A DNA stretch of 30,636 nucleotides from a virus (taxonomy: Duplodnaviria > Caudoviricetes), in IMG/VR virus record IMGVR_UViG_3300020414_000236, positions 1 to 30,636 of that record; one strand, given 5' to 3'. Shown in pieces: positions 8,309 to 19,403 of the stretch. The notes beneath the pieces are model-generated. The model was given only the letters and a program-made list of their open reading frames with translations, ran no database searches and was not told the origin of the DNA. Position numbers and translations under genes: made by a program. Position 1 is the stretch's first letter, and every line of letters starts with the position of its first letter.

Positions 8309-10153
8309 ATGGCATTCTTGTTAAAGGATCGTGTGAAGGAGACTAGTACCACTACAGGCACTGGTGCTTTCACATTAGGAGGCGCATCTGCAACATTCGA
8401 TACATTCTCTTCTGTTCTATCAGACGGAGATACAACATACTATGCTATTGTACATGCCGCTACAGGAACAGACGAATGGGAGGTAGGGCTTGGAACATTT
8501 GCTTCTAGTGGCTCTACCCTCACTCGTACTACTGTTCTTTCATCATCTAATAATGGAAGTGCAACAAACTTCTCTGCAGGTGATAAGGATGTGTTTATTA
8601 CATATCCTGCAGATAAAGCTATATTTAAAGACGGTTCTGGTAACGTTACAATTTCAGGAAACCTTACTGTAGATGGTACAACTACTACGGTAAATAGTAC
8701 TACAGTTACAGTTGATGATCCTATCTTTACTATCGGAGGTGACTCTGCACCTTCTTCAGATGACAACAAAGATCGTGGTATAGAATTTAGATACCATAAT
8801 GGCTCTGCTGCTAAAGTAGGGTTTTTTGGTTTTGATGATAGCACTGGTAAATTTACATTCATACCAGATGCAACAAACAATAGTGAAGTTTTCTCAGGTA
8901 CAGCAGGAACAGTCGTAGCTGCCTTAGAAGGAAACGTAACTGGTGACGTGACAGGAGATGTCACAGGTAATCTTACTGGCAATGTTACAGGAAATGTAAC
9001 TGGAGATGTCACAGGTGACGTTACAGGAAATTTAACTGGTAACGTAACTGGTAATGTTTCAGGTAGTGCAGGTTCTGCTACTGGTAATGCAGCAACAGCT
9101 ACAGCTTTAGCTACTGCACGTAACATAGGTGGTGTATCGTTTGATGGTAGTGCAGATATAACTCTGCCCGGAGTAAACTCAGCAGGTAACCAAGATACGA
9201 CAGGTAATGCAGCAACTGCGACAGCTTTAGAAACAGCTAGACAGATTGCAGGTGTAAACTTTGATGGTACTGCTAACATAGCTATTGCACCTACAGACTT
9301 AACTGGTGTCACATCTACTGCAGCAGAAATAAATATATTAGATGGTGCTACTCTTGATACTGCAGAACTAAACATATTAGACGGTGTTACAGCTACTACT
9401 GCAGAACTAAACATACTAGATGGTGTAACTGCAACCGCAACAGAATTAAATTACGTAGACGGTGTTACATCTGCAATACAAACACAGCTAGACGCAAAGC
9501 CACCACTGAACACCATAGCTGTTACTGTTGCAGGTGGCAAGTTTGTAATTGATGGTACATCACAACACTCTATGTCACTTGTACCTAACGTAACGTATCG
9601 TTTTGACCAGAGTGACTCGTCCAACGCCTCACACCCTATAAAATTCAGTACTACTTCAGATGGTACACATAACTCAGGTTCAGCTTTTACCACAGGAATT
9701 ACCTCTACAGGAACTCCAGGTTCGGCAGGAGCCTACTCAGATGTTAAGTTAGAAAATGACGCACCACAGGTATTATTTTACTATTGCCAAAACCACTCAG
9801 GCATGGGAGCCGAAATAAATGTAGGTAATTCTGCAATAGAAGATCATACTAGCTTGACAGCAGCAGGTTCAACCCTTACAATAGACCTAGCTGCTTCGAA
9901 GCATTTTATAGTAACGATGACAGCAAATACTACTTTTGCTTTTTCAAACATAGATGCAGGGCGTTCAGGTAATATTGTGATCAAAGAAGATTCAACTGGT
10001 GGTTATTCTTTTACTCTACCTTCAGAAGCTAAAACCCCTCTCAATGGTGCTACCATTACACAACAGACTGGTGCAAACAAAGTAAGTGTCTTATCTTATC
10101 ACGTATTAGACTCAAGTAATGTATTAGTAAACTACATTGGAGACTTTGCATAA
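8309..10153 (+). CDS. Fibre protein 1 (multi-repeat shaft, cupredoxin-like domain, C-terminal adaptor domain)
   Basis: 614 aa: N-terminal DRVKET.TT.GTG anchor, G[N/D][V/L]T repeats, GNAATATAL.TAR.I repeats, AELNILDG repeats, HP...YYCQNHSGMG motif. Confidence 0.85.
   Translation: MAFLLKDRVKETSTTTGTGAFTLGGASATFDTFSSVLSDGDTTYYAIVHAATGTDEWEVGLGTFASSGSTLTRTTVLSSSNNGSATNFSAGDKDVFITYPADKAIFKDGSGNVTISGNLTVDGTTTTVNSTTVTVDDPIFTIGGDSAPSSDDNKDRGIEFRYHNGSAAKVGFFGFDDSTGKFTFIPDATNNSEVFSGTAGTVVAALEGNVTGDVTGDVTGNLTGNVTGNVTGDVTGDVTGNLTGNVTGNVSGSAGSATGNAATATALATARNIGGVSFDGSADITLPGVNSAGNQDTTGNAATATALETARQIAGVNFDGTANIAIAPTDLTGVTSTAAEINILDGATLDTAELNILDGVTATTAELNILDGVTATATELNYVDGVTSAIQTQLDAKPPLNTIAVTVAGGKFVIDGTSQHSMSLVPNVTYRFDQSDSSNASHPIKFSTTSDGTHNSGSAFTTGITSTGTPGSAGAYSDVKLENDAPQVLFYYCQNHSGMGAEINVGNSAIEDHTSLTAAGSTLTIDLAASKHFIVTMTANTTFAFSNIDAGRSGNIVIKEDSTGGYSFTLPSEAKTPLNGATITQQTGANKVSVLSYHVLDSSNVLVNYIGDFA
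8930..9061 (+). repeat. G[N/D][V/L]T tetrapeptide tandem repeat (about 11 units)
   Basis: GNVTGDVTGDVTGNLTGNVTGNVTGDVTGDVTGNLTGNVTGNVS; 12-nt period with divergent third codon positions. Confidence 0.9.
9305..9470 (+). repeat. 13-aa (39-nt) repeat, AELNILDGVT type, 4 units
   Basis: GVTSTAAEINILD-GATLDTAELNILD-GVTATTAELNILD-GVTATATELNYVD; ACTGCAGAACTAAACATA occurs twice exactly. Confidence 0.9.
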
Positions 10154-10926
10154 TGCTTGATTTTTTAGATGGTATCTACCAGTACCAAGCTAATACAAGT
10201 ACTAGTAGAAACACAACACAAAGTACAACTCGGTCCACTACTAGAAGTACAACAAAAAGTACTAGTAGTACTGTAGATACTTCTAGCAATACCACTATTT
10301 CTACTACAGCTTCAACTACTAGAAGTACTACGACTACATTTAATACTACTTTTTCTACTTCTTATACTACTACTTATACTACTACTTATAATACTAGTTA
10401 TACAACTAGCTACAGCACCTCTATTCCAGTTACAAGAGAGCCTAGTTCTGGTTGGTATCATAACGGTGGTAATGGCAGTGGTACTCATTACTGGGATGTT
10501 TTTGTTGGCGTCCATGCGGTTTGGGGAGGAACAACTGTAATTGATATTTATTCAAATGGTGGCAATGGAGTTCCAGGCACAGCCACTTCTGCTACAGGAT
10601 ATGATGGAAAAACGTATCTAAGAGGACCAATAACTAACTCTGATATTGCTCTAAAAACTGATATTGCTCCTGCTAGAAACTATCTTGATACAGTTAATAG
10701 TATACCTGTACATACATTTAAATATAAATCAAACGTTGAAGATGAACCAATACTAGGGGTGATGGCACAAGAAGTAGAAGCTGTAGCACCTGAGTTGATG
10801 ACAAATGATACAGACAATGGTTTTAAAGCTGTATATCCACAACAAATACAATACGCAATGTTAAAAGCTATACAAGAACTAACTTCTAAAGTAGAAGATT
10901 TAGAAAATAAAATTAAGAGTATGTAA
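10153..10926 (+). CDS. Ser/Thr-repeat fibre-tip protein A with C-terminal peptidase S74 intramolecular chaperone
   Basis: aa 14-91 are 4-residue S/T repeats; aa 92-162 an aromatic/Gly tip domain; from aa 163 SDIALKTDI...F.YK...GVMAQEVE.V.PEL...MLKAIQEL (S74 signature plus coiled coil). TAATG-coupled to fibre 1. Confidence 0.8.
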   Translation: MLDFLDGIYQYQANTSTSRNTTQSTTRSTTRSTTKSTSSTVDTSSNTTISTTASTTRSTTTTFNTTFSTSYTTTYTTTYNTSYTTSYSTSIPVTREPSSGWYHNGGNGSGTHYWDVFVGVHAVWGGTTVIDIYSNGGNGVPGTATSATGYDGKTYLRGPITNSDIALKTDIAPARNYLDTVNSIPVHTFKYKSNVEDEPILGVMAQEVEAVAPELMTNDTDNGFKAVYPQQIQYAMLKAIQELTSKVEDLENKIKSM

Positions 10927-11231
10927 TGTCTGTTCCTACCAATTATAAAATTGCTAGACAATATGGTGGAGGTTCTCAAAACACTAGCCGTAGTACTAGT
11001 AGATCCACTAGTAGATCCACTAGCAGAAGTACTAGTCGTAATACTACCGTAAGTACAAGCGCATCCACCACTACTACATTTAATACTACTTTTGACACAA
11101 CGTTTGCTACAGGAACTACGTTTACAACTACTTTTGACACAACGTTTGACACAACGTTTGATACAACGTTTGACACTACATTTACTACAACCTTTAATAC
11201 ATCAACTACAAAAACGTTTTATAACACATGA
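10926..11231 (+). CDS. Ser/Thr-repeat protein B (putative return strand of the fibre needle)
   Basis: 101 aa, 54 of them Ser/Thr (hand count). Five SRxT units then TTF[D/N/T] repeats. TAATG overlap upstream and ATGA overlap downstream support real translation. Confidence 0.75.
   Translation: MSVPTNYKIARQYGGGSQNTSRSTSRSTSRSTSRSTSRNTTVSTSASTTTTFNTTFDTTFATGTTFTTTFDTTFDTTFDTTFDTTFTTTFNTSTTKTFYNT
10994..11180 (+). repeat. 12-nt tandem repeats (ACTAGTAGATCC-type and TTTGACACAACG-type)
   Basis: Near-exact 12-mers encode the STSR and FDTT units. Confidence 0.85.
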
Positions 11232-12133
11232 GCATGTTTACTGCTGCTTATATTGATAAGCACCTTGGCAACAAATTAGATTTTACAGCAGACTTGTATA
11301 GATACAAGAAATGTGAAAAAAGATTTAAAGAACTTTGTGAGATACATAACATAGAATCGGCACACGATTGTACTGCCTACGAAAATATTTACTTTAAAAC
11401 ATTAAGCTATACAACATATGCAAATATGTTTATGATGCATCCTTTAAATTTTATATCTTCATTTGATCAAGTACAAGACGCTAGAGCAGATGATGTAGTT
11501 GTTCACGATTATATGACTGCCATAAAAACAGCACAAGAAAAAAGGGGTGGTAAGTACAGAGCAGCCTTTTTGAAGGTGAAAAGGGATATGGATTCTGTAG
11601 CTGTACTTCCCGGTAGCAATAAGTTTGATGAACATTTATGTACTACAAAACTAAAACAATTAGTAGATGAAAATCCTAAATTAGTAGTAAAGCCACATCC
11701 TTTATCTGATAATCAGTTAATGAGTAGAATAAGAGAGTTGGTTCCTGCAAAACAATTAGCTTCACCTATGGAGGATTTATACTCACTGATAGAACAATCT
11801 GAAATAGTGTATAGTACACACATATCAGAAACAGCTTTAACTTCATTGGCACTAGGTAAAGAAATTGAACCGCTTGATAAATTTCAGATGCGTACTCTTG
11901 GTTCGTTTAGTCATGTAAACTATGTGATATATACAGCACTTGATCCTATAAAAGAGATGAATAAAATTTTCTCTTCTCCTAAATCTGGAATAATAAATCT
12001 GGACATTGACACAGATTGGGAGTATAAGATGGAACAATACTTCAAACATATAATGGCTAAAAGAGCAAAAGAAAAAGGTAGATACATATATGGACATGTC
12101 AAGCAAGCCGAGCATAGATCGAGCAATCTTTGA
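11228..12133 (+). CDS. GT-B glycosyltransferase-like protein (KpsS/KpsC- or TagF-like HP motif)
   Basis: VAVLPGS...LVVKPHPL...DLYSLIEQSEIVYSTHISETALTSLALGKEI matches the K.HP and (V.T..S..G.EA...GK.V) pattern of CMP/CDP-donor GT-B C-terminal domains. Confidence 0.6.
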   Translation: MSMFTAAYIDKHLGNKLDFTADLYRYKKCEKRFKELCEIHNIESAHDCTAYENIYFKTLSYTTYANMFMMHPLNFISSFDQVQDARADDVVVHDYMTAIKTAQEKRGGKYRAAFLKVKRDMDSVAVLPGSNKFDEHLCTTKLKQLVDENPKLVVKPHPLSDNQLMSRIRELVPAKQLASPMEDLYSLIEQSEIVYSTHISETALTSLALGKEIEPLDKFQMRTLGSFSHVNYVIYTALDPIKEMNKIFSSPKSGIINLDIDTDWEYKMEQYFKHIMAKRAKEKGRYIYGHVKQAEHRSSNL

Positions 12134-16839: not shown

Positions 16840-18618
16840 ATGGCAGGATATACACGTCAGGCAGCAGCAAATATAGTTACAGGTGGTGTTATTGATGCTG
16901 CAGATTTTAACGCAGAATATAATGCGATTGAAGCAGCATTTAATGCATCAACAGGCCATACACACGATGGTACTACAGGCAATGGTCCACCTATTGAAAA
17001 CATTGGACCTGCTGCTGACCTTGTTATTACAAGTTCTACAGTTCGTCCTAAGACAACCAATACATTGGACTTCGGTACTTCTACTGTTCAATGGAAAGAC
17101 GGTTTCTTTGATGGCACACTAAGAACAGACTTACTTGTAGTAGATGAAACTTCTACACTTACTGGTAATGTCACAGCAGCAGCAGACCTCTCTGTAGGAG
17201 GTAACCTAACTGTAACTGGTAATGCAACAATTAATGGAAACCTAACCTTTGGTGATGCAGCAACAGATACGGTTTCATTTGGTGCAGATATTGACAGTAA
17301 TATTATACCAGATGCTAATAACACATATGATTTAGGATCATCTACGCAGCAATGGAGAAACTTGTTTCTAGATGGACAAGCACAGATAGATGATCTTGTA
17401 GCTGACACTGCTGATATTGATGGTGGTACTATTGATGGAGCAGTAATTGGTGGAACTACTCCTGCAGCTATAACTGGCACAACTGTTACAGGTACTTCTG
17501 TTGTTGGTCCACTAACAGGGGATGTGACTGGTAACATAACAGGCAACGTAACAGGTGATCTTACTGGTGACGTGAAGGCTACAAACGGTACTACTGTTTT
17601 AGACTCTGGTACAAATGGATCAGATGCAACTATTACAGCTACAGTTACAGGAGATGTTACTGGTAACCTAACAGGTAATGTGACAGGAAATGTTACTGGC
17701 AACGTTACAGGAGATTTAACTGGTAATGCTGACACTGCTACAGCCCTAGCAACAGGACGTAACATAGCTTTGACAGGTGCTGTAACAGGTACTGCTACAG
17801 GTTTTGATGGTTCAGCAAATGCAACAATAGCAACAACATTTGGAACTATTACGCTAGGCACAGACACAACTGGTAACTACATGAGTGATGTGACAGCAGG
17901 TACTGGCATTACTGTAACTCACACTGCAGGTGAAGGTAGTAATGCTACCATCGCCCATGCTGATACATCTACTTTATCTGGTGCTACAAGCAACTCAAGC
18001 AATGACTTCATTCAAAACATTACAGTAGATGATAATGGACACGTAACAGCTATTACATCTGGTACTGCTACTGCCTCTGGTGGTAGTACTTATACTGCAG
18101 GTTCAGGTTTAGACCTAAGTGGCTCTAATGTGTTTAGTGTAGAGGCAGACTTAAGAGATGGTATAACTCACGTAGGCCGTGATAGTAACGATTACATTGC
18201 TATAAATGAGCAAAGTATTGACTTTGTTCTTGACGGTAACACAGATGTTCGTATTGAAAACGATGGTGACTTACATGCAGATGGTAATGTTATTGCATAT
18301 TCAACAACTATCTCTGATGAAAGACTTAAGACAGATATACAAAAGATAGACAATGCGTTGGACAAAGTATCTCAACTAAATGGATATACTTTTGAATATA
18401 AGCATGACGGTAAAAAATCTGCAGGGGTGATTGCACAAGAACTAGAAAGTGTAATGCCTAGTGCAATCGAGCAAAAACGTTTACCTCTTCAGACACATGA
18501 TGGTGAAGAGTACAAGATTGTACAATACGATCAACTTCACGGTTTACTTATCGAAGCAATAAAAGAACTAAAAGAAAAACTAGATGAGTGTAAATGCAAA
18601 AAGTGTGAGTGTGAATAA
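16840..18618 (+). CDS. Tail fibre 2 with C-terminal peptidase S74 chaperone
   Basis: 592 aa: N-terminal anchor (A.DFNAEYNAI..AF...GHTHDG), G[N/D][V/L]T repeats, SDERLKTDI...GY.F......AGVIAQE...LLIEAIKEL starting at 18313. Confidence 0.9.
   Translation: MAGYTRQAAANIVTGGVIDAADFNAEYNAIEAAFNASTGHTHDGTTGNGPPIENIGPAADLVITSSTVRPKTTNTLDFGTSTVQWKDGFFDGTLRTDLLVVDETSTLTGNVTAAADLSVGGNLTVTGNATINGNLTFGDAATDTVSFGADIDSNIIPDANNTYDLGSSTQQWRNLFLDGQAQIDDLVADTADIDGGTIDGAVIGGTTPAAITGTTVTGTSVVGPLTGDVTGNITGNVTGDLTGDVKATNGTTVLDSGTNGSDATITATVTGDVTGNLTGNVTGNVTGNVTGDLTGNADTATALATGRNIALTGAVTGTATGFDGSANATIATTFGTITLGTDTTGNYMSDVTAGTGITVTHTAGEGSNATIAHADTSTLSGATSNSSNDFIQNITVDDNGHVTAITSGTATASGGSTYTAGSGLDLSGSNVFSVEADLRDGITHVGRDSNDYIAINEQSIDFVLDGNTDVRIENDGDLHADGNVIAYSTTISDERLKTDIQKIDNALDKVSQLNGYTFEYKHDGKKSAGVIAQELESVMPSAIEQKRLPLQTHDGEEYKIVQYDQLHGLLIEAIKELKEKLDECKCKKCECE
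17506..17727 (+). repeat. Two blocks of G[N/D][V/L/I]T repeats in fibre 2
   Basis: GDVTGNITGNVTGDLTGDV ... GDVTGNLTGNVTGNVTGNVTGDLTGN. Confidence 0.9.
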
Positions 18619-19403
18619 TGGCTTTACCAAGTAGTGGACAACTTAGTTTAAATGAAATTCATATAGAAGCAGGTGGTACTACTGGTACTGAAGTTACTTT
18701 AAACGATAGTGATGTTCGTACTTTAATTAGTAAAGGCGCACAAGTAGAAAATAAAATCAGTGAATACTATGGTGCTTCTAGTACTCCTTCTTTTACTGTA
18801 GATGAAACTAGCACAGTAGGAACAAACTCAAACTTGATTGCGTACTTACAGACCTATCCTAATACGAGTGGAAACAACAACCTTAACTTAGGGGTTGCAA
18901 ACAATTCCTCCACAGTATCTCTCCGTATCCGAATGGGGGATGGTGGAACACCTGAATATTATACTCAGACAGGTTCTTCATATAGAATACAAAGCCCTGC
19001 AGTAGTAGCTGATGCATCAGGCCATAGACATGATCATATAGGTTTTGTTAGAGATGGTGGTGATGGGTATGGATTTACCTTATGTTATTGGTTTTGGGAA
19101 GCAGACTCTGGTGGTGCTTTATCAGGAACAAGTTGGGGTTCAATGAAGTACTATGATCAACTCCAAGATACGCAAGACGGTAGCATGGCAGGACCAACAG
19201 TAACCTCTGGTTCTTCTTCTGCCTATATAGATGCTATAGCGCATAGTGGTGGCGTTAATGTAACAAACCCTGACAACGATCCTTATACTTACGGTGACGT
19301 AGCAATGTTGTCGCAATTAACTAATGGTGCAATAACAAATGACCCCACAAATATATACACTTGGACTGGTGGGATTATATACATGGATTGTAATTTTAAC
19401 TAA
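18618..19403 (+). CDS. Putative fibre-tip adhesin / receptor-binding protein
   Basis: MALPSSGQLSL.EI..E.GG......LND...R.L.......ISEYYGAS N-terminus, typical of genes following S74 fibres; TAATG-coupled. Confidence 0.65.
   Translation: MALPSSGQLSLNEIHIEAGGTTGTEVTLNDSDVRTLISKGAQVENKISEYYGASSTPSFTVDETSTVGTNSNLIAYLQTYPNTSGNNNLNLGVANNSSTVSLRIRMGDGGTPEYYTQTGSSYRIQSPAVVADASGHRHDHIGFVRDGGDGYGFTLCYWFWEADSGGALSGTSWGSMKYYDQLQDTQDGSMAGPTVTSGSSSAYIDAIAHSGGVNVTNPDNDPYTYGDVAMLSQLTNGAITNDPTNIYTWTGGIIYMDCNFN

Follow-up and report, generated by a model that had tools for sequence, protein, structure and literature searches.

Can a self-cleaving fibre chaperone stand at the tip of a fibre, between two genes that encode its halves? 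The question is raised by a 30,636-nucleotide (nt) stretch of phage DNA (Caudoviricetes; positions 1 to 30,636 of IMG/VR record IMGVR_UViG_3300020414_000236; hereafter the window), the structural module of a marine podovirus-like phage with an SU10-type portal and adaptor, a major head protein and several fibres, whose sequence is carried by marine metagenome runs. Gene A (10153..10926, 257 amino acids (aa); this and all features below lie on the plus strand) encodes an outgoing arm, most of a tip domain and a Peptidase S74 chaperone. A TAATG stop/start overlap (10924..10928) couples it to gene B (10926..11231, 101 aa), which encodes the second half of a loop, the last strand of the tip domain and a returning arm. 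The first-pass annotation had proposed that A and B are one fibre-tip gene split by an inserted chaperone. The coordinates it gave for A, B, the overlap and a TCTG tetranucleotide at both junctions (10639-10642 and 10929-10932, 290 nt apart) all proved correct, and removal of 10639-10928 would indeed put A and B in one frame. The split-gene, two-chain model is supported by unsplit homologues, conserved split relatives, crosswise compensating indels and a mirror residue code, and it is well supported, on sequence grounds, that A and B together make up one fold-back fibre whose coding sequence is broken within a loop of its tip domain. The fold-back of the fibre was absent from the earlier account.

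The tip domain is contiguous in unsplit homologues

The outgoing Thr/Ser-rich arm of A (A 9-94, 10177..10434), in which Arg-bearing 4-mers come first and aromatic 4-mers adjoin the tip, leads into the tip domain minus its last strand (A 95-158, REPSSG to TYLRG, 10435..10626), whose centre is hypervariable, and then into the A half of the split loop (A 159-162, 10627..10638). This half is 3-4 residues long in all 12 split A sequences and ends in Asn in 11 of them; here it is Asn162, the predicted new C-terminus. The S74 domain follows directly (A 163-257, 10639..10926). B opens with the other half of the loop (B 2-6, 10929..10943) and continues with a return strand (B 7-13, 10944..10964) and a Thr-rich returning arm (B 14-101, 10965..11228). 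The exact A protein is present on 22 contigs.

A profile built from nine tips, with 8000 scored candidates, gave 17 matches, namely eight S74-bearing A proteins, seven gp38-like proteins, P0004 and one mis-call. In total, the tip was found contiguous in 11 unsplit proteins, eight of them gp38-like and three Thr-rich fold-back fibres (P0004, L015 and L055). The contiguous domain that the first-pass annotation had attributed to marine phage fibres thus exists, in the seven gp38-like proteins (P0018-P0020 and P0022-P0025), P0004, P0005, L015 and L055, and the split-gene model does not fail for want of such homologues. P0005, from Ochrobactrum phage ZX86, was the one weak true match (E 1) in a search of phage records with the tips. 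The tip shares 40% identity over 70 columns with the gp38-like protein P0024. The PF05268 label of the seven gp38-like proteins is precomputed, and a fresh Pfam scan of P0024 did not return that match. Left out of the counts were P0021 (an apparent frameshifted mis-call), P0006 and P0007 (near copies), L029 (self) and L042 (the same match as L041).

In the unsplit tips, the chain passes from the motif with RG at its end through 10-15 loop residues into an aromatic-x-Ile/Val-Ala/Ser/Arg-Arg strand, which is the strand that opens B. When all 9385 seven-residue windows in 25 proteins of the window were ranked with a score built from the return strand of 10 unsplit homologues, B 7-13 came first (19.6, with the runner-up at 14.5), and the B proteins of four split relatives reached equally high scores. 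Among the genes listed after other S74 domains (23 loci, two of which were dropped because they had no called downstream gene), none of the 21 opens with the return strand. What is newly added here is that the break falls in a single loop of a domain found intact in other proteins.

An AlphaFold2 monomer of the unsplit P0004 (15 sequences; mean predicted local distance difference test score (pLDDT) 62) suggests that the region ahead of S74 is a small beta domain on long strands, with strands at 96-100 and 110-135. Two blocks with pLDDT 91 and 85 flank a loop with pLDDT 66, and this loop corresponds to the position of S74 in A. The P0004 strand equivalent to B 7-13 was modelled with a pLDDT of about 85. 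The single-sequence prediction of P0004 (pLDDT 35) was unusable. Foldseek searches of the PDB and viral models with the P0004 model gave no match at E<=0.001, which does not imply a new fold; the best VIA-align match had a Z of 5.5 and a root-mean-square deviation of 7.7, and a gp38-domain protein stood near the top of the viral fold search (E 0.02). Other searches added little. A single-sequence tip search of 1.84 billion representatives returned five matches, all unrelated repeats, the PDB sequence search with the tip profile returned none, and the ESM Atlas gave leads only, all under 0.9. The L015 tip had no match in the phage records and another tip search had four weak ones, pattern scans of viral contigs gave either a single contig identical to the window here or chance matches alone (7 of 7), and no genome contigs carrying the A protein of L019 were found.

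Split relatives and the antiparallel fit of the arms

A metagenome scan yielded six loci, five of them informative and 57-100% identical, all five with A (including S74), B and a 301-aa gene in this order; L021, which ends within the first 20 codons of A, was left out of the counts. In L018-L020 the overlap between A and B is ATGA or GTGA instead of TAATG. The arms of the four complete A/B pairs measure 86/87, 78/79, 82/83 and 82/83 residues, so that A minus B is -1 in each, and in the unsplit P0004 the arms measure 46 and 46 residues. Both L015 (1534 aa) and L055 (988 aa) have the tip 52% of the way along the chain. These two (L015 3575-8179 and L055 2941-5907) are very long single-chain fold-back fibres, and the genome that contains L055 is of the SAR92 clade, the locus probably being part of a prophage.

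The lengths change crosswise. In all five loci, a 4-residue unit far from the A tip co-varies with a unit near the C-terminus of B, and a unit near the A tip is gained or lost together with one near the N-terminus of B; parallel pairing of the arms would mismatch L018-L020. A 972-nt contig likewise lacks 24 nt in the A arm and two 12-nt units in B. When B is reversed and laid ungapped against A, aromatics oppose Arg/Lys and Thr opposes Thr, so that the returning arm is the mirror complement of the outgoing one. Antiparallel aromatic-basic pairs numbered 10, 7, 9, 10 and 9 in the five loci, a level that 0 of 300 shuffles reached for each pair, against 4-6 for the best parallel register, and the unsplit P0004 carries a matching code (6 pairs, 0 of 300 shuffles). 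This test speaks for an antiparallel fit, not for partner specificity, because the arms are periodic and non-cognate pairs score equally. From these observations A and B are predicted to bind each other, and matched changes of the repeats in both genes would keep the fibre halves in register. With 257 + 101 residues, they make a small, expressible test case for mirror-coded Thr fibres. Single-chain Thr-rich fibres of similar style with no recognisable central tip were also seen (L009 3587-4765, L012 3587-4753, L052 6545-6895 and L053 3995-4549).

Several observations weigh against the split fold-back fibre. Neither BLASTP of B against P0004 nor the profile comparison of B with the unsplit alignment was significant, and the modelled structure is monomeric, belongs to a homologue and was built on 15 sequences, with a mean pLDDT of 62. 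The crosswise indels amount to two events, not five, and non-cognate A/B combinations reach scores equal to or above those of the cognate ones, the arms being periodic and the shuffles ignoring periodicity. A close unsplit relative was not found, all eight S74-bearing A proteins of the profile search and all five loci being split, and the tip tree is unresolved (two of 20 branches supported) and cannot order split and unsplit forms. For these last two reasons the direction of the event, an insertion of S74, can only be proposed; a split is favoured because two further protein architectures contain the tip unsplit.

The junction and its TCTG repeat

The junction between the end of S74 and B is bridged by single contigs in four runs from four independent studies, and the 972-nt contig begins in the A arm, crosses S74 and extends to where B ends. 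The assembly chimera that the first-pass annotation had allowed for is thus not the case, and the arrangement is a conserved, real feature and not an artefact. It is also very unlikely, and largely refuted, that B is a mere unrelated neighbour of an A that forms a fibre of the ordinary S74-terminated type, or that the layout stems from misassembly. Fibre genes normally have their S74 domain at the end (PMC12143355) and both A and B are of low complexity, which fits such a reading; but B opens with the missing tip strand, unlike all 21 of the genes listed downstream of other S74 loci, the arm lengths co-vary, and contigs from four studies cross the junction.

The TCTG tetranucleotide is present at both junctions as had been noted, but no meaning as a junction repeat can be attached to it. 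The match is kept in two of the five loci, and an exchange of 10932 G>A abolishes it in contigs of all four runs. TCTG is a Ser codon plus one base, and the probability that two Ser codons are identical in this genome is about 0.25. TCTG was accordingly rejected as a target-site duplication or hop signal, being found in 2/5 loci only and at chance level. A mobile insertion with target-site duplication was rejected as well, as no conserved direct repeat is found at the ends of the insert.

A related possibility is that an intron, or a ribosomal hop between the matching TCT codons, bypasses the 290 nt, which would yield one chain directly. In the window and in L017 the two TCT codons agree and skipping would preserve the frame, yet the match fails in three of the five loci and the insert between the loop halves is 275 to 290 nt long, depending on the locus. 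A search for intron families found none (Rfam gave two chance matches), the S74 protein sequence is conserved among the split relatives, and none of nine listed joints, all from DNA contigs, skips the stretch; no RNA datasets were among the listed carriers of the window sequence. Skipping is therefore regarded as extremely unlikely.

The S74 chaperone and the probable fate of the fibre

Pfam matched Peptidase_S74 (PF13884) to A 163-216 (E 4.8e-13; 49.6 bits against a cut-off of 22), and A carries the expected dyad, with Ser163 (10639-10641) at the scissile bond and Lys168 (10654-10656) five residues on. By profile and dyad, the domain belongs to Peptidase_S74. It is the last domain of chain A, which ends 95 residues past Asn162. 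Across the 12 A sequences the nucleophile is Ser in nine and Cys in three, and the Lys is kept in all. The Cys variants, which retain the Lys, are L020 (1-660), P0013 and P0015; all three are still above the Pfam cut-off, the S74 domain of L020 with 50.1 bits.

In endoNF, Lys916 is described to deprotonate Ser911, which attacks the preceding peptide bond, and the chaperone to assist trimerisation before it is cleaved off (PMC3828593). Cleavage by S74 domains requires the trimer and, in endoNF, also correct folding of the upstream part, a residue from the triple beta-helix upstream participating in cleavage, while MyRF is cleaved with few upstream contacts (PMC8326128). Tail fibres commonly carry S74 at their C-terminus (PMC12143355). 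In an unsplit fold-back fibre, a terminal chaperone cannot nucleate the tip, because the C-terminus lies at the base and the tip mid-chain; given the fold-back path, a split of the gene is required for S74 to arrive at the tip. A gene break in the exposed tip loop would place S74 at the distal end, where A would trimerise through it while coupled translation supplies B in equal amounts. B would then zip along A with antiparallel arms and add the last tip strand non-covalently, after which S74 would cut before Ser163 and leave. The predicted product is a nicked A3B3 needle with a hypervariable, probably host-binding tip. It is thus probable that S74, working from the distal tip, brings about trimerisation and folding of the fibre, cleaves itself off by hydrolysis and not ligation, and leaves a nicked, non-covalent two-chain fibre. 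Such a design, in which a fold-back chain is cut in its receptor-side tip and a terminal chaperone works distally, was not found in the literature searched, outside which most subscription journals fall.

In the contigs of all four runs and studies, the tip centre (10498-10595) is swapped for 91-92 unrelated letters between nearly identical flanks. Such a replacement is the pattern of a host-range cassette.

Alternatively, A and B may pair while S74 is retained as a tip cap or released only on host contact. The domain ahead of S74 may not be a typical triple beta-helix, of which a residue takes part in cleavage in endoNF (PMC8326128), and one lineage has Cys for Ser, both of which would fit retention. 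Against this, the nucleophile and the Lys are kept in 12 of 12 sequences, MyRF is described to cleave despite few upstream contacts (PMC8326128), and the hypervariable centre of the tip is what would be expected of an exposed binding surface. Retention of S74 is consequently considered quite unlikely.

Hydrolysis or ligation

The first-pass annotation had further speculated that the N-terminal Ser of B resolves the S74 acyl intermediate. S74 would then act as a ligase: the ester of Ser163 (a thioester in the Cys lineage), held beside the N-terminus of B by strand pairing, would be attacked by the N-terminal Ser/Thr of B, with Ser2 as the candidate acceptor in the window, and a continuous chain would be restored. 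This is an unlikely reading. A trans-acting S74 ligase that leaves a traceless continuous fibre, and so a non-Hint route to protein trans-splicing, is an equally doubtful outcome. If true, a widespread domain whose one known activity is to cleave itself would also ligate proteins, which would interest enzymologists and protein engineers.

The residue at B position 2 is Ser, Ser, Thr, Thr and Thr in the five loci. A conserved hydroxyl therefore stands, while the exclusive Ser that had been proposed does not (Ser in two, Thr in three). Ser/Thr occupies this position in only 2 of 24 other genes of the window and in 1 of the 21 genes after other S74 domains, and codon 2 of B is constant in the contigs of all four runs while codons 3-6 are each variable. 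The loop halves total 9, 9, 9, 10 and 9 residues although each varies (3-4 plus 5-6), and the Cys nucleophile in 3 of 12 A sequences would likewise be compatible with acyl transfer. Furthermore, endoNF cleavage is triggered by upstream folding (PMC8326128); as this folding would here need the B strand, B could be in place before the cut.

These points have other explanations. The five loci represent about two lineages. In the three Thr cases, the ATGA/GTGA overlaps force codon 2 to begin with A, and 35% of such codons are Ser/Thr, which are the only residues with an A-initial codon that permit Met removal. Ser/Thr also stands five residues ahead of the strand in 4 of 11 unsplit homologues and may thus be inherited. 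The Ser/Thr at B position 2 can therefore be explained by start-codon overlap, Met removal and ancestry. The Asn before the cut is not invariant (11/12), attack by the amine would need no Ser, and the released Ser163 and the N-terminus of B would compete for one place. S74 acyl transfer was not reported in the literature searched, nor was a precedent found for S74 with protein splicing or an intein, for split-fibre ligation, for fold-back two-gene fibres or, under chaperones and transpeptidation, for S74 ligation. Finally, with some 85 residues of arm predicted to pair, the chains would have no need of a covalent bond. Ligation is compatible with the data and speculative, and would not be needed to hold the chains together.

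Comparison with known systems

The domain in A resembles the CIMCD/ICA (Peptidase_S74) domains of the K1F endosialidase and of tail fibres in its Pfam match, its Ser-x4-Lys dyad and its place as the last domain, and by analogy it may be expected to trimerise and to cleave itself before the Ser (PMC3828593, PMC8326128, PMC12143355). The arrangement differs in that S74 here ends the first fibre half only, one lineage has Cys for Ser, and the folding unit is closed without one strand, which the second gene would supply. The ICA domain of MYRF/MrfA is likewise of S74 type with an internal processing site (PMC3828593, PMC8326128), but it is encoded with its protein in one gene, the products separate, and no second chain completes a domain.

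In chain path, the likeness is to the needle of T4 gp37, the distal long tail fibre, in which the chain runs out to the receptor-binding tip and back, domain D10 consisting of residues 811-881 plus 1010-1026 (PMC6957217). The out-and-back path, the central tip, the equal arms and the antiparallel register found here all recall it. T4 gp37, however, is one chain with His-bound iron and the separate chaperones gp38 and gp57A, while the arms of A and B (no His in A 9-94 or in B) have an aromatic/basic and Thr/Thr code and belong to two chains. The gp38-like adhesins (P0018-P0020, P0022-P0025) have the tip domain in common, unsplit, on a Gly-rich body described as monomeric (PMC12032242), in contrast to the Thr-rich stalk with S74 here; the polyglycine body is absent from A and B, and only the tip aligns.

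Split inteins and hedgehog Hint domains place a self-processing domain between protein parts, use an N-to-O/S acyl shift and have Ser/Thr first in the downstream part. The last feature is found in 5/5 of the present loci, with overlap-codon and ancestry as confounders. The likeness is one of layout only, since the fold differs and B has no intein C-terminal half: B opens directly with fibre sequence and A closes with the S74 tail, and Pfam found S74 alone in A, with neither a Hint domain nor the His-Asn motif that closes an intein.

Neighbouring genes and further observations

Upstream of A, and coupled to it by another TAATG, lies a 614-aa tail-fibre gene (8309..10153) with PHROG tail-fibre matches, the C-terminus of whose product is found ahead of A in L016-L018 and L021. 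This protein is likely the proximal fibre and would carry A/B. Directly after B, in 5/5 split loci, follows the 301-aa companion gene (11228..12133, phrog_26179), a candidate glycosyltransferase that may glycosylate the fibre. A homologue from a Caulobacter phage has a weak match to Capsule_synth (PF05159; E 6e-4, below the cut-off). Homologues occur in marine contigs, a SAR92 genome and the cultured Caulobacter phages Cr30 and Quill_5.2, the last of which offer a cultured test system, and they follow a Thr-rich fibre gene at L009 4886-5782, L052 6899-7864, L053 4641-5516 and L055 6016-6888. In Vibrio phage KVP40, the homologue sits among small non-structural-looking genes. In Stenotrophomonas phage DLP6, an unannotated 549-codon frame (L056 3-1652) lies upstream of the transferase homologue; its end may, by eye, be Hint-like, and Pfam gave no match.

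The window contains a second S74-terminated fibre of the ordinary type (16840-18618, 592 aa, with a Cys-rich tail), and next to it a 261-aa gene (18618-19403) whose N-terminus resembles, by eye, the gp38-like adhesins P0018 and P0025. S74-like domains were also seen at the ends of Gln-rich proteins with the look of internal virion proteins and not of fibres, at L045-L051 and similar loci in many viral contigs.

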